This document shows positions 11,596 to 63,949 of a stretch of DNA of 64,000 bases, in pieces. The position numbers and the translations under genes were made by a program. The notes below the pieces were generated by a model. That model had not been told where the DNA came from and ran no database searches. It worked only from the letters and a program-made list of their open reading frames with translations. The stretch's first letter is position 1. Every line of letters starts with the position of its first letter. The stretch comes from a virus (taxonomy: Duplodnaviria > Caudoviricetes), in IMG/VR virus record IMGVR_UViG_3300033073_000243, positions 20,600 to 84,599 of that record, one strand, 5' to 3'.

Positions 11596-11597
11596 TA

Positions 11598-26592: not shown

Positions 26593-27488
26593 ACGACTTA
26601 CAATACATTTTAGACAACGGCGTTGAAAGTAACGACCGCACTGGCACAGGTACCAAAAGTATATTTGGTATGCAAACACGCTACAACTTAGAAAAAGGAT
26701 TCCCTGCTGTTACTACAAAGAAACTAGCATGGAAAGCTGTTGTTAGTGAACTACTATGGTTCATAGAGGGAAGCGGAGATGAAAGACGACTCGCTGAGAT
26801 ATTACATGGAACTCGTGACGCTAGCAAGTCAACGATATGGACGGCCAACGCTAGAGCAGATTATTGGACTCCAAAAGCAGAGTATCCCGGAGACCTCGGA
26901 CGGGTTTATGGAGTACAATGGCGCAAATGGCGCACACCAGTAGAACATAAAGCAACTACATTTAAAGATGACTTTGGCAGTACATACAGTAGAGCAGGTT
27001 ATGTCCACTTTAAAGAAGTCGATCAACTTTCAAACTTGATTGAAGGTATCAAATCTAAACCAGAAGATCGCAGACATATCTTATCCGCTTGGAATCCTGG
27101 CGAACTAGATAACATGGCATTACCTCCTTGCCATTCATTCGCACAGTTTTATGTTCGCAATGGAAAATTGAGCTGTCAAATGTATCAACGAAGTGCTGAC
27201 TTCTTCTTGGGCATTCCTTTTAATATTGCCAGCTATAGTTTACTAACACATATGATTGCACAAGCTTGTGACTTGGGCGTAGGAGAATTCATCCATACTA
27301 TAGGTGATGCTCACATATACAACAACCATATAGAACAAGTTAAAGAACAACTTGCAAGAACACCATTAGCATTACCTACACTGAAACTTAATCCTAATAT
27401 TAAGGATATCACAAAGTTTACCATGGAAGATATTGTGTTAGAGAACTACGAAAGCCTAGGCACTATTAAAGCGCCTATGGCTGTTTAA
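26577..27488 (+). CDS. thyA: thymidylate synthase
   Basis: DRTGTGT, ELLWF, LGRVYG, MALPPCH, YQRSAD, PFNIASY, GDAHIY. Confidence 0.97.
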   Translation: MQQYLNDLQYILDNGVESNDRTGTGTKSIFGMQTRYNLEKGFPAVTTKKLAWKAVVSELLWFIEGSGDERRLAEILHGTRDASKSTIWTANARADYWTPKAEYPGDLGRVYGVQWRKWRTPVEHKATTFKDDFGSTYSRAGYVHFKEVDQLSNLIEGIKSKPEDRRHILSAWNPGELDNMALPPCHSFAQFYVRNGKLSCQMYQRSADFFLGIPFNIASYSLLTHMIAQACDLGVGEFIHTIGDAHIYNNHIEQVKEQLARTPLALPTLKLNPNIKDITKFTMEDIVLENYESLGTIKAPMAV

Positions 27489-28042
27489 AACTGCAACGGA
27501 TCTAAACTTATTTCGTTAATGTGAAGTTCTGCAGGCTGCTCGATTATCCAATTGATATATTGAGCAGCCTTTTCTAATGACATTGTTTTTCTGTCAGGAT
27601 GCTTTGCTTGCATGTTGCTTAATGTACCAAAACTAATTAAAGTAACACGAGGATTATTTCCCCACACACCGGTTAAAGTTAAACTGTTGCAATAATCACG
27701 CAAGGCTTTCTTCTCTGCATTGTATAACCAATCGGTTGCTTTCATAACTCTATCAGTTGTACTACCTACACAGATAATTAATGTGCGCTTGTTTTCGGCT
27801 TTCAACTTTTTATATGTTGCTTCTAACAATAGCGTTTGATTAAAACGCCACAAAGCACTACATATAATAACTAAATCGTACTCCAATGCCATTGTAGCGA
27901 ATTGCTGTTGGCACTCTGCTCTTGTCAAATCCATTGGATTAGGACTACTTCTACTTACAAAAGTGAGATCGTGTCCTTTTAGTTCACTAGCCAATGCATT
28001 ACCCAAACCATATGCTGGGTTTCCTGAGATTAATATTTTCAA
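27485..28042 (-). CDS. short-chain dehydrogenase/reductase
   Basis: ILISGNPAYGLG, ICVGST, YNAEK (YxxxK); stop overlaps the thyA stop. Confidence 0.75.
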   Translation of the reverse strand: MKILISGNPAYGLGNALASELKGHDLTFVSRSSPNPMDLTRAECQQQFATMALEYDLVIICSALWRFNQTLLLEATYKKLKAENKRTLIICVGSTTDRVMKATDWLYNAEKKALRDYCNSLTLTGVWGNNPRVTLISFGTLSNMQAKHPDRKTMSLEKAAQYINWIIEQPAELHINEISLDPLQF

Positions 28043-29352
28043 TTGAATAGTCCTTTGTACTGCGGTGCAATGTCTAATATGCTATGTCCGCGAGCTTTAT
28101 CTAAGTAAGTTGTGAACTTAACAAATTCTTCTAATTTGTCTCCATAGTCTGCAGAGTTAGTGTATTTTAGAATACCTCGTAAAATCGATTCTGCATTTTT
28201 TGCTATTTCTTCTGGATAGCTAACTTTAAAGTCTGCTATACATTTCTCGTAATACTCTGTTAACTCTTGTTTCAAGTTAGCAGGTAAGATGCGAACATTA
28301 ACTCTCTTTGGTCCATGCGCTACATGATGAGTTATTATTGGACGTTTCTTTGTGCTGTTAATTTTAACAAAGCCGCTGTCATCTAACTTCCATTTCATAA
28401 ATGTAGGAATGTGCCAAACATTGTATGCTGTTACAGTACAAGCCAACCATGCAATGATGTTAGAATTCTTTTGTGCGTATTCATCTAGCTTTTGTAAATT
28501 CTTATATGCCTGACTCCACTTTAGTGGCCAGCGTTGATATTCTACAGTTTCACCCATTCCATCCATACTTGCACCAACGCGAACTTGCTTAAACTGTGTC
28601 CACATATCCAACACACGATTGGGCAAGTTAGCCATGTTTGTATTGTATTCAAGTATCATCTTTTTACTTTGACCCATGTCTATACATTTTTGCAAGAACT
28701 CGTAATGACGTTCAATCATCATTGGCTCGCCTCCTGCCATATAAACATGTTTCAAGTTAGGAATGTTATCTTCCATCTGTTGCCAAAAGCTTTCGCTATT
28801 GTGCCAATCATAATCAGATGTCGTTAAACGACCGTTTTCGTTACGAGTTAATTTAACTATGCCATGTGTGTCTTGATAATCTGTACTACCGTGATACTCT
28901 GTCCATTGTTCATACCAAGTATGACTATCAGTTGGTCCGCACATACGGCAAGCTAAGTTACATAAGTTACCAAAACGCAAATCATAATATTCTAACTTAG
29001 GTTCTGATATTGTGCCGTCTTCATTAGTAACATAACGGGCATCATCTAAACTAAATTTCCAATTTTCAAGCTCGTATTGTCTACGACTGTTTAATCCTGA
29101 TTCTTCTTCTTGTTTACAACGACCGCATTCCTGGCTCCACTCTCCTACTAACATGTTCTTGCGAACTTCTTTCATTAGAGTGGCATTACGAGCTTCTGAC
29201 ATGTTGTCCCGGCCTGCATTGTAAGGAGACCCATCTTCGTGTCTAACAACACCTTGATTGTCTGTTACATTGGCTTGACAACAAATACGGATGTCGCCAT
29301 TATTTCTAACTGCTTGGAATATCCAGGGAATAGGACAAAAAGTATTACTCAT
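28039..29352 (-). CDS. radical SAM enzyme with an N-terminal twitch/SPASM-like Cys region
   Basis: CPIPW...CCQ; DLRFGNLCNLACRMCGP; YMAGGEP. Confidence 0.9.
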   Translation of the reverse strand: MSNTFCPIPWIFQAVRNNGDIRICCQANVTDNQGVVRHEDGSPYNAGRDNMSEARNATLMKEVRKNMLVGEWSQECGRCKQEEESGLNSRRQYELENWKFSLDDARYVTNEDGTISEPKLEYYDLRFGNLCNLACRMCGPTDSHTWYEQWTEYHGSTDYQDTHGIVKLTRNENGRLTTSDYDWHNSESFWQQMEDNIPNLKHVYMAGGEPMMIERHYEFLQKCIDMGQSKKMILEYNTNMANLPNRVLDMWTQFKQVRVGASMDGMGETVEYQRWPLKWSQAYKNLQKLDEYAQKNSNIIAWLACTVTAYNVWHIPTFMKWKLDDSGFVKINSTKKRPIITHHVAHGPKRVNVRILPANLKQELTEYYEKCIADFKVSYPEEIAKNAESILRGILKYTNSADYGDKLEEFVKFTTYLDKARGHSILDIAPQYKGLFN

Positions 29353-30124
29353 ATGCCTCCCAGATTAAATAATGTTCCAGCGTTTTCGATGGAATAACAA
29401 AGCTATCATGCGTTAGCATTAGCTCTCCTGAGAAATTATTATCTATAGCTTGTAGCAAAATATTTCCTAAAATTAAATTGTTTTCTTCCGATAAGTGATT
29501 GCATCTAATATCTCTTGCAACTCGTTTGTTTTCTGTATCTACGGTTGATAAATTATTATCAACATTTACATGACCTACTGCTACAAGCTCATTCATAGAA
29601 ACATCTACTAATGCTGCTTTCTCAGTTGAAGAGTTCGAGTCCACTAATATGATATTTTTATCAGAGCGAATCTTATCAATTAATGCTGCATTAGTTTCGG
29701 TTAGATAAGCAGTGTCCATCCATGAAGCCATTGCAAACTCTACATTTTCAACTACCTTTAATTTGAATTTTGTTCCGCTATTTGTTTCTTGATTAGCTAA
29801 GTGTATTTTAGCTAGCTCAACAGAACTAAGATTCACGAACCAATTCCTAAAAAGTAAAGTATCTTTTAATAAATTAAACAAGTGTTCGGAGAAGAATCTC
29901 TGCAATGTAGGAATTATAAAAATATTGTAATCATGTTTGTCTTTATTGTTGATATAATCTTTGTAGCATTGGTACGGGGAATTACCACATTCCCCGTAGT
30001 TGACTACATTATGTACTGTTTGTAAATGATGAACCCAGCTATAGCTCCCTGGTTTATCCAAGTTCATATTAGCATAACTATCGCCATAAACACCAACAGA
30101 TATTTTATTCATATGTCTTATCAC
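29345..30124 (-). CDS. SGNH-like protein
   Basis: VYGDSY, NYGECGNS, DIRCNHL. Confidence 0.6.
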   Translation of the reverse strand: MIRHMNKISVGVYGDSYANMNLDKPGSYSWVHHLQTVHNVVNYGECGNSPYQCYKDYINNKDKHDYNIFIIPTLQRFFSEHLFNLLKDTLLFRNWFVNLSSVELAKIHLANQETNSGTKFKLKVVENVEFAMASWMDTAYLTETNAALIDKIRSDKNIILVDSNSSTEKAALVDVSMNELVAVGHVNVDNNLSTVDTENKRVARDIRCNHLSEENNLILGNILLQAIDNNFSGELMLTHDSFVIPSKTLEHYLIWEAYE

Positions 30125-31271
30125 CCGGGAATAAAGGAAGCTTGGTACCTGGCGCTCGTTTAGGAATCTTACTGTCTGCGCTACTTACGCAACTTGTTCC
30201 GCCGCAAGGCATTGGCTTGTCATATAACTTAAAGCCAGTTTCAATATGACCTAGCGGGACTTCGCTACAGCTATAACTTCTTTTAACTGTGCCATCGGGT
30301 TCACGAATAATAATACTGCGATAGCCACTGCTACATTCCCAACCATTGAAGTTGTTAAAGTTAAACGCATTGAATCGTTCTGCTTGGTCCATGAACCAAG
30401 GATTACCTTCCTTATCAATAAATTCAATTTGGAAATGAGGATCTACTTCGACTTGCTTTTTACGGTTGGCATCTGTTTTGTCGATTAAATAAGTTGGCTT
30501 TGGACGTTGTACTAATCCAGCCTTCTTTGCTTTCTCTTCTGTAAATGCTCGCTGTGGCATCCCGTTATGCAACTTAGCTAACATGTCATCAGTGTAACCA
30601 TCTACTACACGACTAGCTGTTGGATCGCTTTGTGGCTTCAATGTGACATTAATGCCACGATCATGAAAGTAAAGAGCAAGATCATAAATTTCATAAAACT
30701 GTTCCGGAACCATAACTTGATTCACTGTTACTTGTGTATCATATTCTTGACACAATACCAGTTTGTCGGCAAACTCTTTAACTTTTGCATCAGTGTTTAC
30801 ATGTTCACGATGGCAACTTGCTGTGATACTAGCGCGGTGGAAATTCTTAACTGCCGGTACATATTTTTCTTCAAACCACTTTAACGGACGACTCATGTTA
30901 CTTGTCATATGAACCGATGTATAGTTTGTATTTTGTACATCATCATTTAAGTAGTTTAAGATGTCAATGTAAGCAGGGTGGAATGTTGGTTCTCCTCCGC
31001 TTAGGCTAAAGTGATAGCTATTAAAGCCACGCTCACGAGCTTGGCGTTTAATCTCATCAACAGTCTTAAGCATTAAAGGAGTAGGGCGATGATCTTTTGT
31101 ATCGCTGCGAGCATATGGCCAGCAATAGCTACAGCGATAATTGCAGTAGCGTCCTAGTAACCACGACACAGTAAACATGTCACGGTATAGCATTGTTCGT
31201 TGCCCTACTCTAACTAAATCGTCGTAGGGAATTTTTGTAAAGTCGTATTGGCTTACTTTTAAATCACTCAT
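30105..31271 (-). CDS. radical SAM enzyme with a C-terminal SPASM/twitch-like region
   Basis: WLLGRYCNYRCSYC, SGGEPT, GWECSSG...SYSC...CVSSAD; start MSDLK at 31271. Confidence 0.9.
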   Translation of the reverse strand: MSDLKVSQYDFTKIPYDDLVRVGQRTMLYRDMFTVSWLLGRYCNYRCSYCWPYARSDTKDHRPTPLMLKTVDEIKRQARERGFNSYHFSLSGGEPTFHPAYIDILNYLNDDVQNTNYTSVHMTSNMSRPLKWFEEKYVPAVKNFHRASITASCHREHVNTDAKVKEFADKLVLCQEYDTQVTVNQVMVPEQFYEIYDLALYFHDRGINVTLKPQSDPTASRVVDGYTDDMLAKLHNGMPQRAFTEEKAKKAGLVQRPKPTYLIDKTDANRKKQVEVDPHFQIEFIDKEGNPWFMDQAERFNAFNFNNFNGWECSSGYRSIIIREPDGTVKRSYSCSEVPLGHIETGFKLYDKPMPCGGTSCVSSADSKIPKRAPGTKLPLFPGDKTYE

Positions 31272-31497
31272 CTTGTTCGTATACCATTTTAATATCTTTG
31301 CCGGGACCAACTTCACTAGGCAGTCCGCCGTATTCTTTTATATACCATTCGATTGCCGCAACATACCAACCTTGGCTGTTATGTCTACTTGCTATATTGA
31401 ACTTGTAAATGTTATCGTTAGTTGCTGGCATTGTGCTAATAACACGAGCGGCTTCTAACTGTAATGTTCGCAAAGGTAAATCTTTTATGTCTGTCAT
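31264..31497 (-). CDS. 77-aa hypothetical protein between two radical SAM genes
   Basis: Overlaps both neighbours. Confidence 0.6.
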   Translation of the reverse strand: MTDIKDLPLRTLQLEAARVISTMPATNDNIYKFNIASRHNSQGWYVAAIEWYIKEYGGLPSEVGPGKDIKMVYEQDE

Positions 31498-32690
31498 AGA
31501 TCTAAGTTATCCATTAATTTTAACAATGCATCGGTCTTTTTATATTTTTGCTTCTTCTCTAAAAATGCCAATGCCGCTTGTTTATAATCAGGGTTATAAG
31601 AAGTTCCTACTCTGTTTCGCATTTGATTTAAGTAATCAAGGAATTCTTGCTTCCTAACAAAATTTATACCTTCTGAATTGTTAATTGCCTTTTCTGCAAG
31701 GTCTATATATTGTACATAATCTTTAGGTAAATGAGCAATATCTAATTCGTCTGGCCAGCTGGTAAAGTTACCATACCAAGTAAATTCTTTTGTCGGTGCG
31801 TATTTTCTAAACTGCTCATGTACCCAATCTATATATAAATGGAACGTCTTTAAACTAAAAATACTTGCCGCTGGGCTTAATACTATTAGTTCAGTCTTTG
31901 GATGACTAATGTATTTTACAAAGTTACCAGTGAATCTCTCCCAACTTAATCCATGACGAATTAGTTCAGCATCTATACCAAAGCCTTCGTTGCTAATACC
32001 AATTCCCCACGACAACTTACTAGTATCCATACGAGCAATGATCTTATCCATTAAGAATCTCTTGCTGTTAGCGTTAGTGCATATTTCTAAACGAATGTTT
32101 TTATGCGAAGTCTCTGCACATTCTTCTATGTAATCAACTAGTTCGTAGAAGCGTTCACTAGTTGTTGGCTCACCGCCAAGGAAAATAAAAATTGCTTGGT
32201 TATTTGCACTTTGTTTATTGTTTAGGAAATCACGAATCCATTGTTTAAAAACAGTGTAGTCATTTTCTTTTGTCAAATCTTCGTAAGGTTCGTTTTGTTC
32301 TTGTGCGACTTTACTGCTACTCCACGAACTGCAATATAAACAACTCATATCACATGTTCTGTCTGTTTTAATTTCTACATAATAAACATGACGGTCATCA
32401 TTAAGAATATGTCTATTACTTTCTACAAAGGCGTCTTTCCAATTATTAGCCCAATCTCTGTATGCGCTGTTACCTTTGGCATAATCATTCCAGCAACTGG
32501 CACAATCAGAATGTGCGATGTTCTGCAGACTTTGTGCCCTGCGTTCTTGTATTCGTGGACCGTTACTAATGAACTCGGTTGTGAGCGTTTCAGGGAAATC
32601 ATATGTTACTGCTTTACAGCAATGTTTTAATGTCCTTGACTCAAAATCGATATTGATATCCGTCCAAGTTTTTGAACAATATGTTTTCAT
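31494..32690 (-). CDS. radical SAM enzyme with an N-terminal Cys region
   Basis: YCSKTW...HCCK; TDRTCDMSCLYCSS; FLGGEPT. Confidence 0.88.
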   Translation of the reverse strand: MKTYCSKTWTDINIDFESRTLKHCCKAVTYDFPETLTTEFISNGPRIQERRAQSLQNIAHSDCASCWNDYAKGNSAYRDWANNWKDAFVESNRHILNDDRHVYYVEIKTDRTCDMSCLYCSSWSSSKVAQEQNEPYEDLTKENDYTVFKQWIRDFLNNKQSANNQAIFIFLGGEPTTSERFYELVDYIEECAETSHKNIRLEICTNANSKRFLMDKIIARMDTSKLSWGIGISNEGFGIDAELIRHGLSWERFTGNFVKYISHPKTELIVLSPAASIFSLKTFHLYIDWVHEQFRKYAPTKEFTWYGNFTSWPDELDIAHLPKDYVQYIDLAEKAINNSEGINFVRKQEFLDYLNQMRNRVGTSYNPDYKQAALAFLEKKQKYKKTDALLKLMDNLDL

Positions 32691-33415
32691 ATTTCAATAA
32701 TCATGCTTCTTTGTTTAGAATTTACAAAAAAGCTTTCTTCTCTTCCACGACGCTGATAATGAGTCACACCATTTAAGTAAGGCTCTTTTACTACATCGCT
32801 GTCACCTGCATATATGTCGATGATTTTTTGATCTTTAGGTCCTATGCACAAAACAACAATTGGCTCTATAAATTCTCCGTTCAATTTATCTTCAAATAAG
32901 TTTTTAAATTTTTCATTGGACATCATATCTTCAAGACCGCAAGCCACAAATGCTGTCCCGTAACCTAACTCTTCTGCTGTTAATTGAGCATAACTTGCAC
33001 TAATCATAGCGTCACGAACACTGCTCTTAATCATTGCATATTTGTTAACAGAACTTGTTACTTCACTATAAGATCTATCGAAAATTTCAGTTCCGGTTTG
33101 TTCATTGACAGATAACATCTGATGCTCAGGAGCAGGATTGGCAACATATACCAAAACCAAAGGAGCCTTCACTTGCATCAAATATATAGTATCATCGGTT
33201 TCTTCATATAATGTTATATGATCGCATAGCTCCTTCTTTAGTTCATTGGCTTCTGCGGTTTCTCCTAATGCAAAGATTTTATAACCGTAAATCTTATTTT
33301 TACTAGGAGCACGCCTTGCACTATCTAGTATAGTGGCTACATCATTTTCGGATACAGATCCTGACATTAGTCTTGTTGTGTGACGTTTATTGATTATGGA
33401 ATTAATTTTAGACAT
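32687..33415 (-). CDS. nitroreductase-family flavoprotein
   Basis: INKRHTTR, ARRAPSKN, AEELGYGTAFVAC. Confidence 0.75.
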   Translation of the reverse strand: MSKINSIINKRHTTRLMSGSVSENDVATILDSARRAPSKNKIYGYKIFALGETAEANELKKELCDHITLYEETDDTIYLMQVKAPLVLVYVANPAPEHQMLSVNEQTGTEIFDRSYSEVTSSVNKYAMIKSSVRDAMISASYAQLTAEELGYGTAFVACGLEDMMSNEKFKNLFEDKLNGEFIEPIVVLCIGPKDQKIIDIYAGDSDVVKEPYLNGVTHYQRRGREESFFVNSKQRSMIIEI

Positions 33416-33436
33416 GTGAAATTTATTAAGTTAGTA

Positions 33437-33450
33437 GATAAATATTTATT
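33437..33450. promoter_or_regulatory. back-to-back late-type promoters (GATAAATA on +, AATAAATA on -)
   Basis: Palindrome ATAAATATTTAT at 33438-33449 in the 65-bp gap between divergent genes. Confidence 0.55.
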
Positions 33451-33480
33451 AGTAACAACCATGAAGCATAGGAGACAAGC

Positions 33481-34224
33481 ATGAGCGATGACAGCGTACT
33501 AAATGAGTATGGGATCAGCGGTGAACCAATCGAATCATTTGTTAGACGAAATGATTTCCCAGCAAATATACATTACCCACAAGATTTACAAACAGGAATG
33601 GAAGTAAGACGAGATAGTCGTATTCCATTTTTACCAATCGATGATTGGATGCAAACCGAAGATTGGGCAGGTATGCATGAAGAAGCAAAGCGTCTTAGCA
33701 AACATTATATTCAACATAGAAGTCATGAGTCTCATAAAGGTTGGAGCAGTTTGGTAATTCACGGTCTAAGTAGCGTTCACACAGAAAGCAGTCATACATA
33801 CGGCTTTACAGATGAAAATGCTCCTTGGCGTTGGACTGACGTTTCGGATTGGTGTCCACTTATTACTAACTTTATCAAAACCAAAGTCAACTACAAAAAG
33901 TTCTTTAGAGTTCGTATTATGAAACTTGCACCAGGCGGCTGGGTTATCCCTCATAAGGATAGTTTAACACAACAAGAAAATCATATCGGTCCATTAAATA
34001 TTGCGTTGAATCATCCAGACGGCTGTAAGTTTATTATGGACGGAGTTGGATGTTTACCATGGACGCAAGGACGAGCAATTACATTGAACCTATTTAATGT
34101 ACACGCTGTTTATAACGATAGCAACGAAGATAGATATCATATGATTGTGCATGGTTGGGCTCCTGATCACTGGAGCGATTTAGTCTACAACAATTATAAT
34201 AATTGGAAGAAGGTGTATGCGTAA
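33481..34224 (+). CDS. Asp/Asn beta-hydroxylase-family Fe(II)/2OG oxygenase
   Basis: RIMKLAPGGWVIPHKD, HAVYNDSNEDRYHMIVHG; AGGAG Shine-Dalgarno. Confidence 0.85.
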   Translation: MSDDSVLNEYGISGEPIESFVRRNDFPANIHYPQDLQTGMEVRRDSRIPFLPIDDWMQTEDWAGMHEEAKRLSKHYIQHRSHESHKGWSSLVIHGLSSVHTESSHTYGFTDENAPWRWTDVSDWCPLITNFIKTKVNYKKFFRVRIMKLAPGGWVIPHKDSLTQQENHIGPLNIALNHPDGCKFIMDGVGCLPWTQGRAITLNLFNVHAVYNDSNEDRYHMIVHGWAPDHWSDLVYNNYNNWKKVYA

Positions 34225-35704: not shown

Positions 35705-35705
35705 C

Positions 35706-35731
35706 AAAATAGGACCAATTGGTCCTATTTT
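35706..35731. terminator. bidirectional terminator (perfect 26-bp palindrome)
   Basis: AAAATAGGACCAATTGGTCCTATTTT between convergent genes. Confidence 0.85.
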
Positions 35732-42470: not shown

Positions 42471-42474
42471 ATTG

Positions 42475-46457: not shown

Positions 46458-46463
46458 ATATCC

Positions 46464-48309: not shown

Positions 48310-48310
48310 A

Positions 48311-49261: not shown

Positions 49262-49292
49262 TGTTATTGTTTTAGATTGTGTTTGTACATTT

Positions 49293-52549: not shown

Positions 52550-52550
52550 A

Positions 52551-54349: not shown

Positions 54350-54678
54350 TTCTTGTATGCCTTTATTCTTGTTATTTTGCCAGCGGCATTAAATGTAATT
54401 CTATCCTGAACTTCAACAGTTATAGTATTATCAATTAAAATAGAAATATCAGCCATTACATAATCTTCTGAGATATTTGCCAATCCAGTAACTGTAATAT
54501 CAATTGTAGATATACTGTCAAAGAATTGTCGGTTATGCGCTAATATTTCTTTTTTACCTGTTATATCTATTTCCCAGTCTTTTACTTGTGCGTTATCGTC
54601 AAACATTTCGGATAGTTTATTAATATCTTTATTACTAAATGCTTGGAAATATTCTTTTACTTGTTTCCTTCTAGCCAC
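54346..54678 (-). CDS. SnoaL/NTF2-like protein
   Basis: YFQAFSNKDINKLSEMF...GKKEI...ITFNAAGKITRI. Confidence 0.75.
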   Translation of the reverse strand: MARRKQVKEYFQAFSNKDINKLSEMFDDNAQVKDWEIDITGKKEILAHNRQFFDSISTIDITVTGLANISEDYVMADISILIDNTITVEVQDRITFNAAGKITRIKAYKK

Positions 54679-56203
54679 GATCTAATTCCTCAAACAACTT
54701 AATGCCTAAGTACCAAAGGAATAAATCAAACGGCGCTGTGTGTAATGGTGCCATATTCCAAAAGATAATAGGTATTAGTTGCTGTACTTTCTTATAATCT
54801 AACCCTTGTTTCTTAACATATTCTTTTAACTTGCGCTGATATACAGTAATGTGATCTACATTTGGAACACTTAATGTAACTGCATGATTATCTATTTCGA
54901 TATTAAAATTGTGATCTTTAATGTTAGCGTAGTTAATTATAAACCCGCCGGCCATTTTAGCCAAGTCATAATAGATATCACCATATTCGACTATACCTGC
55001 AAATTCGTGTCTCCAATCAATAATCTTGAACTCACCTGAAGAGTTAATTACAACATTATCAAATTGTAAATCACCGTGAATAAATCCCGGGCGACATGTT
55101 TTACTTAGATATTCCCAATCAATGTTATCTAAATAATGTCTATAGTCTTTAACCGCAACTCCATTAACGCTGTGTACTGGTTCTAAGTTAGGGTATTTTT
55201 CTAGAAACTTATTAATGCGTAGTAGGCTTTTTGTTTTATAAAACTCCACTGCGGCTGATGTTATATCGGTATTAGTTTCATGCCAAACATTTTCTTCCAG
55301 CCATTCTAATAAAGCAGTAAATGCTATTGGATTATTAAATTGATAAAGAGTTTTACCCGGCCAAAAATCGTAAGCCATATAGTTTCCACTATGCATAACA
55401 TTGGGAGGAAATACTGTTGGATTAACTGTTGTCTTGTGATATTTCTTTTCAGCTATACTAGCATCTAACCACCATTTGACTACACGATTATTAACAATAT
55501 AAGTTACTTCGTCTGTTTTACTAAAATCAAACTTTTGACTTTTACTTAACTCGGTTTGATATATTTCTGGATTGCCAAAGTCTTTCCAAGTTACTAAACC
55601 GGCAGTATCTGCGCCTTTGCGTATAATGTGAATAAACTCGTTGCTTTTTAATTTGTTTAAGTCTGCCCAGAATGTTTTATAATCATCAATATACATTAGA
55701 CCCGTAAATGCCATCCAATCTTCTGGAGTATGCTTTTTAAACACAACATCTTTAATAGTAAAGTCATTATCTACTTCAAACATTGTATAGAGGTTAGTGT
55801 CCTTTTCAGGAACATGTTTAACAAAATAGCAATCGTTATTGCCTATTTTATCAATAATAGATTCATTAAAGTAAGTGTCACAAGGCACATACCAAAATGG
55901 TCCTTGTACATATTGTTGACATTGTTTTAAAGTATAGCCGGTGCCGCTATTATCGCTGATATAGTCGTCAATTTTAACAAATTCAATATCACGATCAGCA
56001 TAAGCTACTGTACAAAAGTCCATTACTTGTTCTGCTAAGTAGCCAACTGGGATAATGAATTTTGTATTTTTTGGAAAGGCATCAATAATATACCCTATAA
56101 CTGGTTTGTCTTTATAGGGTAATAATGCTTTGTTAAGATTTTTAGTAAAGTTTCCCATCCTACTGCCAAGACCAGCAGTAGGTATAATAACTGTATTACT
56201 CAT
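54671..56203 (-). CDS. nucleotidyltransferase fused to an APH/choline-kinase-like phosphotransferase
   Basis: IIPTAGLGSRM...NKALLP; HGDLQFDN...IIDWR...YYDLAK; start MSNT at 56203. Confidence 0.85.
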   Translation of the reverse strand: MSNTVIIPTAGLGSRMGNFTKNLNKALLPYKDKPVIGYIIDAFPKNTKFIIPVGYLAEQVMDFCTVAYADRDIEFVKIDDYISDNSGTGYTLKQCQQYVQGPFWYVPCDTYFNESIIDKIGNNDCYFVKHVPEKDTNLYTMFEVDNDFTIKDVVFKKHTPEDWMAFTGLMYIDDYKTFWADLNKLKSNEFIHIIRKGADTAGLVTWKDFGNPEIYQTELSKSQKFDFSKTDEVTYIVNNRVVKWWLDASIAEKKYHKTTVNPTVFPPNVMHSGNYMAYDFWPGKTLYQFNNPIAFTALLEWLEENVWHETNTDITSAAVEFYKTKSLLRINKFLEKYPNLEPVHSVNGVAVKDYRHYLDNIDWEYLSKTCRPGFIHGDLQFDNVVINSSGEFKIIDWRHEFAGIVEYGDIYYDLAKMAGGFIINYANIKDHNFNIEIDNHAVTLSVPNVDHITVYQRKLKEYVKKQGLDYKKVQQLIPIIFWNMAPLHTAPFDLFLWYLGIKLFEELDRG

Positions 56204-56636
56204 GTTCTGATTGTATTTTTCCGTGTGTACGACCTTGGTCATCATGTAAACGAATAACATCGTCAACATGTTCTGTACTAACTTCGATAAACTCTAAGTC
56301 AGTAGTTGCATAGACTCTATGTGCATATCCAGGTGCCATATCAAATACTGTACCAGGAGTCAATTCAACTAACTCTAGTGTTGCTTCATAATCAGCAACT
56401 TGTTCAGGAGTCATTCCGTTTAGAAGAAAACTATTAAAGTCAAAAGGTTCCTTACTGCGGTACAATTTACCAGTGCCGTTTAGAACATAATTCGTTTCAA
56501 ACTTCTCTGCATGTACTTGTAAACTAGTTCTATTGCCGGCTCTGAATAGGATTCTTTTTAATGCGTAAGGTGTGCGAACACCGTCTGCTATCCATAATTC
56601 ATAACCCCAATGTTTAGAAACTTTTTTTATATCCAT
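56196..56636 (-). CDS. cupin (mannose-6-phosphate isomerase type II C-terminal-like)
   Basis: KHWGYE, TSLQVH...ETNYVLNG, HRV, EVST...DDVIRL. Confidence 0.8.
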   Translation of the reverse strand: MDIKKVSKHWGYELWIADGVRTPYALKRILFRAGNRTSLQVHAEKFETNYVLNGTGKLYRSKEPFDFNSFLLNGMTPEQVADYEATLELVELTPGTVFDMAPGYAHRVYATTDLEFIEVSTEHVDDVIRLHDDQGRTHGKIQSEHE

Positions 56637-57436
56637 TTGTTTTCCTTTAGCTTTGACATTATCAAGTCAAAGGCTTTTCTATGTCCTTGTGCGCTGGTAT
56701 GCCAACTTGGCAAATCATCAGGATAATCTATCGAAAGTTGTCCCCAGCTCAATTCACAGATATTTATAGGACAAATAAACTTTTCGTAGTAAGCAGGCTC
56801 ATGTGTTAGTATTAAGTGATTAATTCCAGCATTTTTTAACAATGTATGAGCCATAGTCATAAGCCCAATTGTATGGATTCTGTTTATTCTACTATCATGT
56901 ATAGTAGTTCCATAGTCATACAATGTTTTCATCCGTTGTTTTGGCTCATCTATAAATCTATGATAATACCCGGATTGCACATTTTTACTGCCAAAGTTCT
57001 CCCAATAGTCAATTACACCCATTAGGTTATCTGTGAACATGTTACCTTTGTATCGAGGATTATCTTGCATAGGATGTGGGAGTCTTATCTCTTTATCCTT
57101 TACATGATATGTATGTTCTCCATACGGCGGGTATTGATGATAGTTAACATCCTCTAAAGTAATTTCCCCGCTTTGATCCACTTCCATCGGAAACCAATCA
57201 ACTCTATCATAACTAGTATGACTTATAATTACTAAATCTAAATTGTCTTTAAAATGCTCCAGAGCATACTTAGCTTGTAAGTAGATGCTAAAATTTGTAC
57301 TAGATCCTTTGGCTAAGTTGATAACATCTTTATCGAGTTCTTTACCTAATAGTTGTCCATAAGGTTCTGTGGCAAGGTCGTGACAACCTATACCAATGTT
57401 AAAACTATCTCCGCATATTGCTATACTTTTATTCAC
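56627..57436 (-). CDS. SGNH-like protein
   Basis: ICGDSF, NLAKGSSTN, WHTSAQGH. Confidence 0.7.
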   Translation of the reverse strand: MNKSIAICGDSFNIGIGCHDLATEPYGQLLGKELDKDVINLAKGSSTNFSIYLQAKYALEHFKDNLDLVIISHTSYDRVDWFPMEVDQSGEITLEDVNYHQYPPYGEHTYHVKDKEIRLPHPMQDNPRYKGNMFTDNLMGVIDYWENFGSKNVQSGYYHRFIDEPKQRMKTLYDYGTTIHDSRINRIHTIGLMTMAHTLLKNAGINHLILTHEPAYYEKFICPINICELSWGQLSIDYPDDLPSWHTSAQGHRKAFDLIMSKLKENKWI

Positions 57437-58235
57437 TATATAACTCCATTAGCTTTGGATATAAAACTTCCTCTGCCCAGTACTTATGTCCGTCACGAAG
57501 TACATGCATTGCCGGACCATGTTGAAAGCCTTTTAAGTTACAAACTGTTTGCATAGCATCATTAAAGTAGATACCGATATTAGCAGGATGCTCTGTTAAC
57601 TTTAACTCAGTTGCATACTTCTCGTAAACATTTTCTCCCAGCCAAGTGTCCCACCAAGCTGGAACGCTTTGGAAGAACAAATACTTTATACCAAGATGCT
57701 CTAAAGTATTTTTCATCATAAACTGTTGCTGTAGATAAGTTTCCACACAACCAACTAAACTTATACCTGTAGCAGTATAATGTTTTTGTAATTCTTCTAT
57801 AGACTTGATTGTATGTTTAGCTGTTTCCTTTTCGTATGGTCCCAGGAAATCACTAAACGGTTGTGTCATGTTGAATCTATGCCAACCTCTAATAGCAGGG
57901 TCATCTACATAAATCTCGTTACGCTCTGCACTTGTCCAACCCAATACAACTACTAATTCTTGCTGTTGTTCTTTAGTTAACTTGTTGATATAGTTTAAGG
58001 TAGTTCTTATCATGCGTTGATTAGACCCGCCGCCAATTGATTCATTGACAACAGGCATGTTTAACTTTGCACCTAAGTAAGCTCCCCAGTTGTACATATT
58101 GTAGAATTCGACTAAGTTTAAATCTGTTTTGTTTGTATAAGGAGGTTGTGACTTAGCCCACTCATTAAATAGTTCTTCTTCATGCTCTAATTCTAGACCT
58201 GCTGTCCAACTACAACCATTTACATATAACATCAT
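57429..58235 (-). CDS. SGNH-like protein
   Basis: VNGCSWTAG, NESIGGGSN, MHVLRDGH. Confidence 0.7.
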   Translation of the reverse strand: MMLYVNGCSWTAGLELEHEEELFNEWAKSQPPYTNKTDLNLVEFYNMYNWGAYLGAKLNMPVVNESIGGGSNQRMIRTTLNYINKLTKEQQQELVVVLGWTSAERNEIYVDDPAIRGWHRFNMTQPFSDFLGPYEKETAKHTIKSIEELQKHYTATGISLVGCVETYLQQQFMMKNTLEHLGIKYLFFQSVPAWWDTWLGENVYEKYATELKLTEHPANIGIYFNDAMQTVCNLKGFQHGPAMHVLRDGHKYWAEEVLYPKLMELYSE

Positions 58236-59131
58236 AGTATTTTATTCTCTTTGATATATCTATACAACTCATTTGCCCAAGCGGCATGACCTTCTGGGCT
58301 AGGATGCCAGCCTGCACCTTGACCAACTGTACAGTAAGGGTTGATTAAGTTAGCATTGTCTATATAGCTTTTGAAAGTTGAGTTAGGCTGATCTTTCTTA
58401 TAAAAGCTAATTGGATCTATCAGTTCCCACATAGTGGAATATTCTGTCAACGCATGATAGCGTTGTTTGTTATCACTATAGCTGTATCCAAATTTGTGTA
58501 GATTGTTTATAGCATCCTTAACATTTAATTCTTCCCAGCTATCTATATTTGCGTTTGGGCTTTGATAAAATGCATTAAACTGTATCAGCTTGATGTTGTT
58601 TGCTTGACAAAAGTTCTGTAGCTGTAAGCAATTCATTACAAAGCGTACAATATATTCTTCGGGGTTCCACAAGTAAGCTACATACAATTCCCATATTTTC
58701 TCTTGAGCTTTATGTGCAAAGTTTGGAACATTGGGCCACAATCTAAAAGGCATAGAGCTGTTATCATCTTTAAACCAAAAGCTATTTCGTTCGGGACTAC
58801 TCCAACCTACAACTACTAATAAGTCATCTGTGGGTCTCTTAGGAACAAGATAGTTTGTAGTAATGTATTCGATTGTTCTTCTAAGTATACTGCCATTATC
58901 ATCTGCAGGCCAAGCCAAGTTAATAACTTCTGCATTTAGTTTGTTTGCTAGATAGCTTGGATATGTGCGCGGGATCCTATACGCATCGTTATCTTCATTA
59001 AAGTCATATTGGCAAACATGTGTAGCGTTGGGATTTTTATCGACAAGTTCTTGCGGGACTATTTCAGAGCCAAAGGTCCAGCTATCGCCATTAGCAATTA
59101 TCGTTTTAGTTTTTAAGTTAAGCAAGCTCAT
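58232..59131 (-). CDS. SGNH-like protein
   Basis: ANGDSWTFG, NLAWPADDN, WHPSPEGH. Confidence 0.72.
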   Translation of the reverse strand: MSLLNLKTKTIIANGDSWTFGSEIVPQELVDKNPNATHVCQYDFNEDNDAYRIPRTYPSYLANKLNAEVINLAWPADDNGSILRRTIEYITTNYLVPKRPTDDLLVVVGWSSPERNSFWFKDDNSSMPFRLWPNVPNFAHKAQEKIWELYVAYLWNPEEYIVRFVMNCLQLQNFCQANNIKLIQFNAFYQSPNANIDSWEELNVKDAINNLHKFGYSYSDNKQRYHALTEYSTMWELIDPISFYKKDQPNSTFKSYIDNANLINPYCTVGQGAGWHPSPEGHAAWANELYRYIKENKIL

Positions 59132-59946
59132 CTATACCAATCCATACACATTTTCATAACTTGTTCCCAATCGTAAATAGGATCAAGTCCGGACTCTGCT
59201 ACATTCTTTCTAACAACATACCAAGGGAAACTATAAAAGCAAGTTGGATGTATAGACATATCAATTAAGTTTCTATATATCATAGTACCAGGTCCATAAA
59301 AGAACTCCGGAGCCACATTGCCTATGCCTGTCATATCAATCGGAGCAGCCTTTTGATGATGTATATAGTATATGTTGGAAGCCAAGTCCATTGTTTTACT
59401 ATCGCCATAGAAGAACACATCATCAAAGTTATTGTAGTGGAATTCAAATGGAAATTTTGCAATCGGTGTACAAGTATACATCATAAGCGGACTCATGACA
59501 TGCGGAATAAAATTTGTATGTGGATTGTATATTGTATCTAGGCGTAGCTTAATAACTAAGTCGTATTCGAAATCGTTAGCGAGTTCATGTTTGCGTTTCA
59601 TATGAACGCTTTTCATAAAGCTGTAGAACATTCCATCAAAGTTTCTAGTAGAGTTAGTTCGTTCTAAAAAGCCATCCCATTTATCTACACAAACATCAAC
59701 AGGGTTATACGCTTCGATAAGTTTTTGTTTCAAATCAGGAGTTACTTGTTCGTGTGTAAATTCTTGTGTAGCTGTATTTGGTCGATAGGAATTAGTATCC
59801 CAAGTATGGATAAAGATATCGTATTTTATAGGTACAAAGGTCTCAGGATGATCCTGTCTGCTGAAAAAGTGTTTAATACTTTTGACTGCGAACTCCCAAG
59901 TGCGTGGTTGTCCGCTAAAGCAAAGTGCTATTCTATATGGTTTCAT
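59128..59946 (-). CDS. putative glycosyltransferase of the IAxCxSGQPR type, paralog 1
   Basis: IALCFSGQPR, IFIHTW, YDLVIKLRLD. Confidence 0.55.
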   Translation of the reverse strand: MKPYRIALCFSGQPRTWEFAVKSIKHFFSRQDHPETFVPIKYDIFIHTWDTNSYRPNTATQEFTHEQVTPDLKQKLIEAYNPVDVCVDKWDGFLERTNSTRNFDGMFYSFMKSVHMKRKHELANDFEYDLVIKLRLDTIYNPHTNFIPHVMSPLMMYTCTPIAKFPFEFHYNNFDDVFFYGDSKTMDLASNIYYIHHQKAAPIDMTGIGNVAPEFFYGPGTMIYRNLIDMSIHPTCFYSFPWYVVRKNVAESGLDPIYDWEQVMKMCMDWYR

Positions 59947-59948
59947 AA

Positions 59949-60749
59949 TTAAGTGAGTTCATGTCCGCCGAGACCTCCTTGACCTTGTTCGAGTTTCTTT
60001 GTCAAGTATTCGTTAGTACGCATTACTTTAGGATCTGCGTAGTTACAACGATTCTTAATTAACATCATCTGTATAAAGAAAGCGAAAGGTACTTCGGGCG
60101 GGTTGTTATCGTGTCCAAATGGTTGTATACCTATAACGGGTAGCCAACGATAAAACTCGCCCAGCTTGTCAAAAGTATTGCTATCTGCATAGTAGAATAT
60201 ATCTCCTATTCTAAAGAACGGAAACCCGTCGGCTCTGCCATTATGACAACTATGTATAGTGTTGAATTCAGGATACTCGAAACTGTTAATAAACAAGTCA
60301 ATCGACTCTTCGTTAAAGTATAAATCTGTTCTTAACTTAAAGCAAATGTCGTATCTAAATCCTTGTTCAACTTCGTATTCCTTTTTCAGTTGAGTAGCTC
60401 GCATTGCGCTATAGAACTGACTGCCTGACCAATGTACAGGTGTACCTCCACTGATGGAATAAACTTCGCCTGCTCTACGGATATCTTCCATAACTTTCAT
60501 GCTTTTGTCGTAGCCTTCGATTAAGCATTTCTTTGGGCGCAGATGTTCGTTCAGTCGTTGGAATTCTTCTTCAGATACTCGTTGAGGAGTTAAGTCGTTA
60601 AGTATTTGTGGGAGACTATTAAAGTCCCACAGGTGGTAAAAGAAATCTACTTCGGCATCAGCAAAGCGTGAAAACAATTGTTTCCACGATTCTACACAGC
60701 TTTCCCATGTTCTTGGTTGCCCATTAAGACAAACGGCTATTCTTACCAT
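59949..60749 (-). CDS. putative glycosyltransferase of the IAxCxSGQPR type, paralog 2
   Basis: IAVCLNGQPR, FFYHLW, YDICFKLRTD. Confidence 0.55.
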   Translation of the reverse strand: MVRIAVCLNGQPRTWESCVESWKQLFSRFADAEVDFFYHLWDFNSLPQILNDLTPQRVSEEEFQRLNEHLRPKKCLIEGYDKSMKVMEDIRRAGEVYSISGGTPVHWSGSQFYSAMRATQLKKEYEVEQGFRYDICFKLRTDLYFNEESIDLFINSFEYPEFNTIHSCHNGRADGFPFFRIGDIFYYADSNTFDKLGEFYRWLPVIGIQPFGHDNNPPEVPFAFFIQMMLIKNRCNYADPKVMRTNEYLTKKLEQGQGGLGGHELT

Positions 60750-62133
60750 ATTTCCAGTAGTTATATAATTCTTCCATCTCGGGGAATGTCTTTAAAAAGT
60801 TTGTACCGCGACGGCGATCATGCTCATCTACAAATTTAATAAAGTCCCTGTGATAAGGTGTTATCTCTTTGTGTTCATCTTTACGAATCATTAATTCGTA
60901 TATGCGTCTAAACTTGTCTGCTTCCCACTTAAAGAATCCACGATTGCTAGTACCAAACCATTCAGGATGTTCTAAGTTTTCATACATAAATGTAACTTGT
61001 TCGTACACCAAATCAGCATATTTGTTTGGCATAATAAAAATAGCCTGGTGTCCCGGATGACGTAAGTACGGAACATCAACAATTAGAGGTGCATTAGTTT
61101 TACCATGCCCGCCGTACTTGTTTTTAATCTCTAACATATCCTGTAAAAACTCTTTGTATCTAAACAAACTAAGAGCATTGTATGTGCTCATAATTGTAAT
61201 AGTACAATTAGGTACTTCAGACAGTATGCGATTGATATTGCGCTTCCACAATTCGTAGTTAAGTCCATCTCGGATGTATTCGGCTTGTTCACCATAAGTG
61301 TCACAGCTAGTGAATACTTTAAACTTTTGAACTTTCTTTTCACCGCAGATAATTTTAATCTTCTCTATGAACTTGTCAAAGATTTTATCAGGTATACATA
61401 AGTTGCTATTAACGCTTAAATGTATCTCAGGATTAGGGTTATCTATAACATAGTCAAGTACCTTAAAAGTATCTTTAGTTAGTAGTGGTTCTCCGCCAGT
61501 TATTCTAAAGTGTTTAAGTGTTGGATAAACGCTAGGCCACCATTTCCAAAATGCTTCTACATAAGGGTTATGTTGATTGTGTGGGATTGGCATAACGCCA
61601 TCACGCTTCATCCATTCTATGTCGTTGTATTTTAAACCGGTTGGATAAGGTCCGTGTTTCTCTATTTCTTCCATCCACATGCTACTAATTTGTGGACTGC
61701 AATAGCTGCATTTAAAGTTACAAACATTGCTAAAGCTAACTTCTAAGTAGCTTGGGTTTACATCCTGATCCCATGGCATTGTTCGTACTTCGTCGAAGTA
61801 TGGTTGTGCCCAAACATCATAGCTTTTATAAATTCTATCGCTAACGGCGTCTGGGTTACTATCTTCCACATTCCAACAGTAGTCGCACTCTGCTGGGCGA
61901 GTGCCTTCTAGCATCATTTTGCGTTGTTCTTTTTTAAAATTGGTATTATGTAATGCGCTAGGATTTTTTGCAATCTCGTCCAATGGGATTCGATGTGCAA
62001 CAGGGTGGTGACAGCTATGAGTTTGCCCGAGTTGTAAATGGAGTGTAACTTGTTTCCATTTTGCTAAACAAAAACTCGGACTTACTTCGTTGATTTTGTT
62101 TTTGTAGTCTTTGATATCTTTATTAATGTCCAT
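60724..62133 (-). CDS. radical SAM enzyme with an N-terminal Cys region
   Basis: FCLAKW...SCHH...ECDYC; FSNVCNFKCSYC; ITGGEPL. Confidence 0.9.
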   Translation of the reverse strand: MDINKDIKDYKNKINEVSPSFCLAKWKQVTLHLQLGQTHSCHHPVAHRIPLDEIAKNPSALHNTNFKKEQRKMMLEGTRPAECDYCWNVEDSNPDAVSDRIYKSYDVWAQPYFDEVRTMPWDQDVNPSYLEVSFSNVCNFKCSYCSPQISSMWMEEIEKHGPYPTGLKYNDIEWMKRDGVMPIPHNQHNPYVEAFWKWWPSVYPTLKHFRITGGEPLLTKDTFKVLDYVIDNPNPEIHLSVNSNLCIPDKIFDKFIEKIKIICGEKKVQKFKVFTSCDTYGEQAEYIRDGLNYELWKRNINRILSEVPNCTITIMSTYNALSLFRYKEFLQDMLEIKNKYGGHGKTNAPLIVDVPYLRHPGHQAIFIMPNKYADLVYEQVTFMYENLEHPEWFGTSNRGFFKWEADKFRRIYELMIRKDEHKEITPYHRDFIKFVDEHDRRRGTNFLKTFPEMEELYNYWKYGKNSRLS

Positions 62134-63919: not shown

Positions 63920-63949
63920 CTGATATTTATATAATTCATGTCACCGAGT

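Follow-up and report, generated by a model that had tools for sequence, protein, structure and literature searches.

A 35-kb enzyme island with twelve radical-SAM genes in a T4-like jumbo phage: a probable glycan-building and glycan-editing system

Introduction

What use does a phage have for 35 kb of enzyme genes, a dozen of which encode radical S-adenosylmethionine (radical-SAM) proteins? The question arises from a 64,000-nucleotide stretch of viral DNA (hereafter the window), bases 20600-84599 of the linear 84.6-kb IMG/VR viral contig IMGVR_UViG_3300033073_000243 (Caudoviricetes), in which positions 27485-62133 are occupied by an island of such genes (all positions below are those of the window unless another record is named). 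The CheckV completeness of the contig is ~22%, which implies a source genome of ~380 kb; genomes in this lineage measure ~350-385 kb, and the island takes up ~10% of that. No near relative was found when both halves of the window were compared by megablast with 50,697 deposited phage records.

A first-pass annotation, made from the letters alone, had described 35 tightly packed genes and proposed that they make a heavily modified glycan or metabolite, most simply attached to mucin-like virion proteins encoded next to the island, under late promoters. The analysis reported here keeps the glycan and loosens its tie to mucin-like proteins. With moderate confidence, we read the locus as a hypervariable, late-transcribed and wholly soluble (cytoplasmic) island that would build and then edit a glycan; the glycan part of this reading, taken by itself, appears likely.

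Results

An island of soluble enzymes

The island holds 34 open reading frames (ORFs) of at least 80 aa, numbered g01 to g34, and a conserved 77-aa ORF, which together give the 35 genes first counted. They are as tightly packed as described, with 28 of the 34 gene junctions overlapping or abutting and a largest gap of 65 nt. Searches against Pfam, NCBIfam and PHROGs matched no structural, replication or transport family among the island proteins, in agreement with the earlier remark that no such genes are recognizable here, and no transmembrane helix is predicted in any of them. Family and membrane-helix scans of the same proteins gave no peptidase family and no exporter, and no priming transferase, flippase, polymerase, transporter or lipid-carrier gene is present in the island. 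PHROGs had no match for g01, g08, g12, g13, g15, g22 and g29. The island is flanked by thyA (with a dihydrofolate reductase (DHFR)-like gene) on one side and by fibre-type genes on the other, and the window ends 1.9 kb past it. Because the motif, family and model results given below match it, we regard the first-pass gene inventory as correct, with the shades of support noted for single enzymes.

Twelve radical-SAM enzymes in three classes

The CxxxCxxC motif is intact in exactly 12 island ORFs, the number originally reported, and all-against-all BLAST sorts these into three paralogue classes. Class A (g02, g05, g09, g10, g14, g18 and g34) carries a Cys-rich module ahead of the radical-SAM core, class B (g11, g16 and g19) has the core first and a SPASM-like region at its C-terminus, and class C (g04 and g17) is viperin/MoaA/STM4011-like. 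All lie on the minus strand. The class A gene g34 (60724..62133) is the first gene of a long minus-strand unit, and g19, g18, g17 and g16 (classes B, A, C and B) form a run of four consecutive radical-SAM genes at 43224..47642. Further along, 35731..43227 holds the SGNH-like g15, class A g14, SGNH-like g13, oxygenase-like g12, class B g11 and class A g10 and g09, and 27485..33415 holds the nitroreductase g06, class A g05, the 77-aa ORF, class C g04, SGNH-like g03, class A g02 and g01, which resembles a short-chain dehydrogenase/reductase (SDR). The gathering score of Pfam PF04055 is reached by nine of the twelve, with g02 and g16 at 26-27 bits, and the radical-SAM membership of g18 is recognized by NF033640 only.

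This last model, the NCBIfam family N_Twi_rSAM (twitch domain-containing radical SAM protein; curated cut-off 170 bits), accounts for most of class A. Six proteins are members (g02, 384 bits; g09, 333; g10, 292; g14, 429.7; g18, 240; g34, 356.5), and g05, just below the cut-off at 165.9 bits, is not counted as one. An alignment of all seven class A proteins has invariant cysteines C12, C93 and C96 and a Cys near position 40 in every sequence; beyond these, C149, C153 and C156 are kept, followed by a GGE motif (G224-G225-E226). The cluster motif of g34 reads CNFKCSYC, and a Pfam SPASM match covers residues 11-73 of g09. The most conserved gene of the island is g14, which has more than 4000 homologues at E <= 1e-10 in a large protein collection, all of them metagenomic.

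Glycosyltransferase folds and tailoring enzymes

Five proteins count as glycosyltransferase-like, namely g20, g21 and the C-terminus of g22, and g32 and g33, with paralogy established by all-against-all BLAST. None of them matches a Pfam glycosyltransferase family at E <= 0.01, the only hit being DUF7796 (17.5 bits) for g32, and leads from a protein atlas consisted of automatic names only; one member of each paralogue family was therefore modelled. The AlphaFold model of g21 (pLDDT 87.9) adopts a GT-A fold, which Foldseek matches to SunS, TarP and PBCV-1 A64R at ~3-6e-04 (A64R, 5.5e-04) and VIA aligns with B4GALNT1 (Z 10.7, rmsd 3.2, 143 aa). GT-A rows predominate in the VIA list, beside the GT-A-like nucleotidyltransferases IspD/IspDF, MobA and HddC, and the GT-A fold matches of g21 include the peptide/protein glycosyltransferases SunS, PBCV-1 A64R and GalNAc-T2. 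In the g20/g21/g22 family a DxD motif is formed by D84 and D86, neither of which varies across 39 aligned sequences; the three genes occupy 47635..51080 (minus strand), g22 having an N-terminal 370 aa without a family ahead of its GT-A domain. The model of g32 (pLDDT 88) also has a GT-A fold, of the GT6/GT8/B3GalT type, with Foldseek matches to B3GalT5 (8e-07) and BoGT6a (1.1e-06) and a VIA alignment with BoGT6a (Z 12.0, rmsd 3.6, 198 aa). Its paralogue g33 is 30% identical and lies beside it (59128..60749, minus strand); D129 and D137 are invariant in the alignment of this family, and no canonical DxD was placed on the model. The two models, together with the paralogues, uphold the count of five.

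The neighbouring g23 (51077..52549, minus strand) is an O-carbamoyltransferase of the TobZ/NovN/GdmN/NodU family, as its first label of NodU/CmcH type had it. Its Kae1-like and YrdC-like domains both score above cut-off (PF02543, 132.6 bits, and PF16861, 177.2 bits, respectively), and its matches include NovN (1e-55), GdmN (1e-46) and TobZ (8e-34). Support for the other tailoring enzymes is more graded. Block I, II and V motifs of the SGNH type occur in six ORFs (g03, g13, g15, g29, g30 and g31), the number first counted, the block I Ser and block V His-type motifs being readable in all six and block I taking the form GDS/GCS in g29-g31. Curated models go along with this for two of them only: PF19547 (DUF6071) is passed by g30 (68.3 bits) and g31 (57.3 bits), g13 is below its cut-off at 17.8 bits, and the island SGNH-like ORFs score 17.6-21.3 bits against PF00657, whose cut-off is 23.6. 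The genes g31, g30 and g29 lie together at 56627..59131 (minus strand).

Two Fe/2-oxoglutarate oxygenases had been proposed. One, g07, is an Asp/Arg beta-hydroxylase-type oxygenase (PF05118, 44 bits) and forms with g08 the only plus-strand unit of the island (33481..35704); g08 (495 aa) has no family, PHROG or PDB match. The other, g12, is oxygenase-like by motif only (HxD...H) and has no PDB sequence match. Likewise, the SDR g01 is recognizable by motif only (GxxxGxG and YxxxK), and the proposed nitroreductase, g06, is a family member by family search. The genes g28 to g24 (52551..56636, minus strand) make up what appears to be a building-block cassette, in which family searches identify a cupin (g28), a fusion of a nucleoside triphosphate (NTP)-transferase with an APH-type kinase (g27), a SnoaL-like protein (g26), an AroE-like dehydrogenase (g25) and a GatZ/KbaZ-like TIM barrel (g24). 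The fusion protein g27, whose closest solved relative is the phosphocholine cytidylyltransferase LicC (6.5e-06), is confirmed and is in keeping with the sugar-nucleotide cassette of the first-pass annotation.

A conserved core with swapped cassettes

In a protein-guided scan, g14 was found at 68-93% identity in at least 188 IMG/VR contigs and the carbamoyltransferase g23 in at least 567 (61-84% identity among the best 80). Five long related records (G001-G005; 211-246 kb, 60-67% complete) give a view of the lineage. The T4 major capsid protein gp23 is encoded in both records searched for it, G001 and G003, and in G001 the portal, sheath, tube and neck are of the T4 type as well; from these genes and the number of contigs, the lineage is an uncultured and common group of T4-like jumbo phages. 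We considered the 'moraphage' jumbo lineage (PMC12619734) as this group and dropped it, as radical SAM is not mentioned in that paper.

The island is mosaic across this lineage. In nearly all of 158 related loci, g14, g19-g21 and g23 can be found with at least 50% identity, and g03, g06, g13, g15 and g30 are rare or very divergent; each related long record has 8-20 N_Twi matches. In G001, g01-g23 are kept in the same order at 31-93% identity, and g24-g33 are replaced by 14 unrelated genes, among them three NAD-dependent nucleoside diphosphate (NDP)-sugar epimerase/dehydratases and a thiamine pyrophosphate enzyme. After this swapped cassette come, in G001, g34-like radical-SAM genes, then homologues of the genes upstream of the island (g35 and g36) and, past these, a gene for a 1988-aa protein. 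A conserved core combined with exchanged sugar-pathway cassettes resembles, by analogy, the pattern of surface-glycan loci.

Bacterial relatives of the radical-SAM family

Bacterial genomes offer a second context for the N_Twi family. None of 14 model genomes has a protein over the NF033640 cut-off, and carriers number 79 of 301 Bdellovibrionota (often with at least five copies), 3 of 401 Pseudomonadota and 3 of 251 Planctomycetota. One Pseudomonadota genome has an O-antigen locus of the ABC-transporter type in which 4-5 N_Twi genes stand in tandem between RmlD/Wzm/Wzt and a group composed of a TylF-type sugar O-methyltransferase, another methyltransferase and a WbsX glycosyltransferase. Here (L206, G110:C19, 8579-11143, minus strand), Wzt (ABC_tran + Wzt_C) and an N_Twi domain share one 854-aa open frame, which is followed by 3-4 N_Twi genes.

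In Bdellovibrionota, the family forms chromosomal islands (L218-L223; G590:C1 1.40-1.44 Mb, G452:C1 2.375-2.412 Mb, G699:C15 636-668 kb) in which up to ~10 radical-SAM genes are accompanied by an epimerase, a nitroreductase and GT2 glycosyltransferases, and which have housekeeping genes (Dus, YceG, BipA, cytochrome oxidase) on either side. These islands contain homologues of g01, g02, g04 (65%), g14 (60-64%), g16/g19, g17, g21/g22, g23, g27 and g34. A search for homologues of g05 returned only viral or metagenomic proteins, without bacterial context. In a tree of g14, the bacterial sequences fall outside a single clade made up of the phage ones (support 91/77), so that the sharing with Bdellovibrionota is probably old; a recent transfer from such a host to the phage is rejected on the same ground and because identity is only 58-63%. 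As a pointer to the phage's host, the shared genes would be at most a weak lead. Short contigs of metagenome-assembled genomes with g14 matches (Neisseriaceae, Planctomycetota, Bdellovibrionales) were not used as host evidence, and the Neisseriaceae contig nests inside the phage clade.

Late-type promoter motifs head the island units

Window scans for sigma-70-like promoter sites and terminators gave no enrichment over shuffles. A different signal is provided by TATAAATA, the T4 late-promoter consensus. Its ATAAATA core is 3.5-fold depleted in the window (8 sites seen versus 27.9 expected, with more in every shuffle), and five of the eight sites lie within or head the island. One TATAAATA motif (62158..62165, minus strand) is placed 25 nt upstream of g34, immediately after a CCGCC-TTCG-GGCGG hairpin with T-run that ends the g35 transcript, and an internal copy (56761..56768, minus strand) lies 125 nt upstream of the g28 start. 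In the divergent gap between g06 and g07, the palindromic ATAAATATTTAT (33438..33449, no strand assigned) presents late-type motifs in both directions.

The same motif is found at structural genes in G001. Over that whole record ATAAATA occurs 51 times against ~137 expected, and for 34 of these sites a start codon follows within 80 nt, typically at 20-25 nt. Genes preceded in this way include those for the portal, tail sheath, tail tube, neck adaptor and a head-decoration-type protein, as well as the homologues of g35 and g07, the last with the motif at 27 nt. The ATAAATA-type motif is thus the predicted T4-type late promoter of the lineage. Because late-type motifs head the island units and the same motif precedes structural genes of G001, late transcription of the island is a reasonable inference, and at the level of the motif the late promoters of the first-pass annotation are sustained.

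Fibre genes beside the island

Upstream of g34 lies g35 (62229..63326, minus strand), a virion-type protein of 365 aa that we treat as a neighbour of the island without implying membership. Its N-terminus is of the conserved fibre type and matches the virion structural protein family phrog_14394 (7.8e-08), and from about residue 174 it runs into a P/T/A/V/S tract. The next gene, cut by the window end (63932-64000, minus strand), also finishes in a Pro/Thr-rich tract (...ATTASPVVGTSPSPIY). Homologues of g35 lie ~5 kb upstream of the radical-SAM cluster and on the same strand in four of the five long relatives; the association of the island with a fibre module is conserved.

The tails are not. 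In G001, G002, G004 and G005 the g35 homologues have a globular fibre-type C-terminus and no Pro/Thr tail. G001, which retains g01-g23, has no Pro/Thr/Ser-rich (mucin-like) ORF in its 233 kb (~65% of the genome), where the highest P/T/S fraction over 50 aa is 0.46, in non-mucin sequence, versus 0.62 in the phage studied here. Across 2.6 Mb of related loci, many of which stop short of the g35 position, no true Pro/Thr-rich ORF was found. Since the homologues in four relatives end in globular domains, the Pro/Thr tails are a derived feature of this phage, and since relatives keep the island without them, the island is older and more widespread than the tails. The co-occurrence of island and Pro/Thr-rich virion genes expected from the original proposal thus fails in G001 and in the g35 homologues of four relatives. 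For the same reason, attachment to such tails cannot be the general role of the island; they could serve as one acceptor in this particular phage.

Other small and neighbouring genes

The conserved 77-aa ORF (31264-31497, minus strand) fills the only sizeable gap in the island, between the radical-SAM genes g05 and g04. It is 48-91% identical over its whole length in at least 43 related loci, lacks Cys, has no family match and gave chance-level TPR matches only in a PDB sequence search; it may be a small partner protein.

Outside the island, genes on the plus strand at 7083-13233 include a UDP-glucose-dehydrogenase-like gene (7083-7889), a GTP cyclohydrolase (7893-8663) and QueE (10553-11413), and by their predicted functions they suggest a 7-deazaguanine pathway, with sugar enzymes mixed in, that is separate from the island. 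An 81-aa ORF (22014-22259, plus strand) starts MMKQKGFTLIELMIVVAFIGILAAIAMP, an N-terminus of type IV pilin/pseudopilin type; its neighbours are a MoxR-like AAA ATPase (20595-21704) on one side and a DUF2201 metallopeptidase with a VWA protein (22599-23804) on the other. A 76-aa ORF (16678-16908, plus strand) combines a signal-peptide-like start with an Ala/Pro/Lys-rich low-complexity tail.

Discussion

From the observed gene content, folds, families, conservation, cassette swapping and promoter motifs we infer a glycan substrate, an order of steps and an acceptor. In the proposed scheme, the swappable g24-g28 cassette would supply a nucleotide-activated building block, and the five GT-A-fold transferases would attach sugars to an acceptor. 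The 12 radical-SAM enzymes, seven of them of the N-terminal-twitch type with a predicted auxiliary iron-sulfur (Fe-S) cluster, would then rewrite the product together with the six SGNH/DUF6071 acyl-transferase/esterase-like proteins, the O-carbamoyltransferase, the hydroxylase-type oxygenases, the nitroreductase-type flavoprotein and the SDR. A glycan function is well supported by the enzyme content, the exchange of cassettes, the Bdellovibrionota islands and the O-antigen locus. The sugar-tailoring system first proposed thereby gains GT-A folds, an activation cassette, an O-carbamoyltransferase, the NDP-sugar enzymes of G001 and the occurrence of N_Twi genes in O-antigen and GT2-rich islands. 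As for the acceptor, position and timing suggest a virion protein of the adjacent fibre module as the likeliest candidate, which we put forward tentatively and somewhat short of an even chance.

Several observations weigh against this reading. The N_Twi profile has no close solved structure, its best PDB match (1e-05) being to the radical-SAM core only; BlsE is among its matches (1.1e-04), and peptide maturases and viperins score equally well. SPASM/twitch radical-SAM enzymes often use peptides, not sugars, as substrates, and we found no paper that gives N_Twi enzymes a reaction or islands of this kind a product. The matches of g21 and g32 to GT-A enzymes are at the level of the fold, with 6-15% identity. 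The bacterial survey sampled three phyla, and the O-antigen context of N_Twi comes from a single genome. The timing is read from a motif, and the adjacency of island and fibre genes may merely mirror a plastic region of the genome. Finally, soluble enzymes also serve ABC-transporter-dependent host O-antigen, so the lack of membrane proteins does not separate a virion from a host target; we accordingly rejected the argument that soluble-only enzymes exclude the host surface, given the N_Twi genes of the Wzm/Wzt locus, whose tailoring likewise takes place in the cytoplasm.

This point bears directly on the main alternative, that the island remodels the host surface. Its enzymes would then act on the host's undecaprenyl-linked O-antigen or capsule on the cytoplasmic side, or on the nucleotide-sugar pool, and the altered glycan, exported by host machinery, would change the surface of the infected cell and so block superinfection or stop progeny from sticking to debris. 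The Asp/Arg-hydroxylase family of g07 also contains the lipid A hydroxylase LpxO; N_Twi genes lie within the Wzm/Wzt O-antigen locus, one in frame with Wzt; the GT2-rich Bdellovibrionota islands share the core families; and host O-chain modification is the published reading for the glycosyltransferases of pelagimyophage host recognition clusters (PMC7029224). We nevertheless hold this alternative to be unlikely, if well worth keeping in view: in a lytic phage of the T4 type, late-type motifs suit virion assembly better than a surface conversion early in infection, priming, flipping, polymerization and transport would all have to come from a host pathway that fits the island, and its position beside fibre genes is conserved. 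The original model, in which a glycan coat covers the Pro/Thr-rich ends of g35 and of the truncated gene beside it, much like the virion glycosylation of mycobacteriophages, draws on the two adjacent virion-type genes with such ends, the virion family matched by the g35 N-terminus, the peptide and protein glycosyltransferases among the GT-A matches, the late-type motifs and the precedent of mycobacteriophage virion glycosylation (Freeman et al. 2023, as cited in PMC12619734). It is improbable in view of the relatives described above, with g01-g23 kept in G001 without a Pro/Thr/Ser-rich ORF, globular ends on four g35 homologues and no such ORF in the 2.6 Mb of related loci, many of which stop before g35; in addition, a terminator separates g35 from the island.

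Two further alternatives were weighed. The radical-SAM enzymes, the Asp/Arg hydroxylase and the nitroreductase-type dehydrogenase could cross-link, epimerize or hydroxylate residues in a sugar-free maturation of phage proteins or peptides, akin to that of ribosomally synthesized and post-translationally modified peptides (RiPPs). Secondary NCBIfam matches of the island radical-SAM proteins are indeed to the peptide maturases PapB, SkfB, ScmE/F and QhpD, Asp/Arg hydroxylases classically act on proteins, and two radical-SAM genes enclose the conserved 77-aa ORF. Such a system is very unlikely here, however, as the elements of a RiPP cluster (precursor, recognition element, protease/exporter) were not found in the island: its sole small ORF is the 77-aa gene, whose full-length conservation and lack of Cys do not fit a hypervariable precursor, and protease and exporter are absent. 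It would also leave unexplained the five GT-A proteins, the carbamoyltransferase, the activation cassette, the NDP-sugar enzymes of G001 and the O-antigen context. Scarcely credible, in our judgement, is a role in DNA hypermodification with a modified sugar or in making an aminoglycoside- or nucleoside-like soluble metabolite, although the island is bordered by thyA and the DHFR-like gene, a 7-deazaguanine cluster is encoded upstream, carbamoyltransferases of the g23 family tailor antibiotics such as tobramycin and novobiocin, and all island enzymes are soluble. ThyA scores as a canonical thymidylate synthase (357 bits), and its pairing with a DHFR-like gene recalls T4 frd-td; the island showed no hydroxymethylase or T4-type DNA glucosyltransferase, and no gene that would confer resistance to a toxic metabolite or export it; and late-type motifs and the bacterial O-antigen context misfit the timing of DNA synthesis.

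Returning to the favoured reading of a glycan-building and glycan-editing island, its most far-reaching form is that phages of this lineage cover their own fibre or virion proteins with a glycan that varies between strains and is rewritten by N_Twi arrays, and that the same toolkit underlies a surface-glycan system of the predatory Bdellovibrionota. We consider this version speculative and, on balance, rather unlikely, and would say the same of its corollaries, in which the arrays would perform, for example, sugar C-H functionalization, epimerization or deoxygenation on a polymer or a protein-linked glycan, a chemistry not described for any radical-SAM family, and Bdellovibrionota would perhaps be hosts. 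Should the glycan reading hold, the island would be among the largest enzyme investments known in a phage, an unassigned radical-SAM family with thousands of environmental members would acquire a function, and the hypervariable islands beside fibre genes would be explained as makers of phage glycans that form a variable interface with hosts, defences or grazers. The link to Bdellovibrionota glycan islands offers a bacterial genetic system, and the Ralstonia phage RsoM2USA a culturable phage with the conserved core.

How does the island compare with known systems? At the level of single enzymes, six ORFs share with the NF033640 family an N-terminal four-Cys module before the CxxxCxxC core, whereas five other radical-SAM genes of the island represent two other architectures. 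BtrN, BlsE, AprD4 and DesII have in common with class A a radical-SAM core, an extra Fe-S module and a sugar-pathway context, but their auxiliary domain is C-terminal and that of class A N-terminal, and the similarity is confined to the core. The carbamoyltransferase g23 has the same Kae1-like and YrdC-like domains as TobZ, NovN, GdmN and NodU, yet at ~490 aa it is shorter than the solved TobZ/NovN-type enzymes (576-702 aa), and it is no NodU equivalog (141 bits versus a cut-off of 1000). The ABC-transporter O-antigen loci (Wzm/Wzt) resemble the island in their tandem N_Twi genes and soluble cytoplasmic tailoring enzymes and differ in that the phage island lacks a transporter, a priming enzyme and a lipid-carrier gene.

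Among viral systems, glycosylation of the capsid and tail tube is established in mycobacteriophages (Freeman et al. 2023, PMC10527164, as reported in PMC12619734). These phages and the chlorovirus PBCV-1 (A64R) resemble the island in having virus-encoded cytoplasmic glycosyltransferases beside structural genes; in the mycobacteriophages, the acceptors are Ser/Thr/Pro-rich tails at the C-terminus. They use one to a few transferases, without radical-SAM, SGNH or carbamoyl enzymes, and Ser/Thr/Pro tails, which there accompany the transferases, are found in our phage but are absent from the island-keeping G001 and from the g35 homologues of three others (G002, G004, G005). A partial counterpart occurs in the cultured jumbo phage RsoM2USA, where genes 199-203 (123467-129043 of its genome), annotated as hypothetical, encode a carbamoyltransferase, three SGNH/DUF6071-like proteins and one N_Twi protein. 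RsoM2USA_199 is 48% identical to g23 and RsoM2USA_202 36% to g34; the module differs from the island in its single radical-SAM gene, its phage lineage and host, and in having no match to the GT-A families of the island in the region searched.

Radical-SAM expansions and hypervariable islands have already been published, without an assigned function. A T4-like environmental genome with 12 radical-SAM genes was discussed under Fe-S metabolism only (Nishimura et al. 2017, PMC5332604), and a hypervariable 'host recognition cluster' of pelagimyophages and cyanomyophages was described with fibres, glycosyltransferases, lipopolysaccharide-type genes and the gain and loss of radical-SAM cassettes, for which modification of the host O-chain was proposed (Zaragoza-Solas et al. 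2020, PMC7029224); VrlC and the neck gene gp14 are the flanks that define this cluster. Smaller clusters of this kind occur in cultured phages: in the Pelagibacter phage Mosig, the stretch from a fibre gene to VrlC encodes a carbamoyltransferase, three MoaA-like radical-SAM proteins, two Asp/Arg hydroxylases and two nitroreductases, and the Synechococcus phage S-SSM7 has a carbamoyltransferase and a sugar-activation cluster between a fibre gene and gp13. Like these clusters, our island is large, hypervariable, T4-like and fibre-adjacent, with glycosyltransferases, an Asp/Arg hydroxylase and radical-SAM cassettes: its relatives carry gp23, it is mosaic in 158 loci, has its sugar genes swapped in G001 and touches g35 and g36 upstream. 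It differs from them in consisting of 35 kb of enzymes only, with 12 radical-SAM genes, in its jumbo lineage and in its place between thyA and fibre-type genes, and identity to Mosig and S-SSM7 is low (~30% for g23, 22-26% for radical SAM). We therefore read the island as a jumbo-phage form of the host recognition clusters known from aquatic T4-like phages, with an enzyme core held in common with surface-glycan-type islands of Bdellovibrionota.

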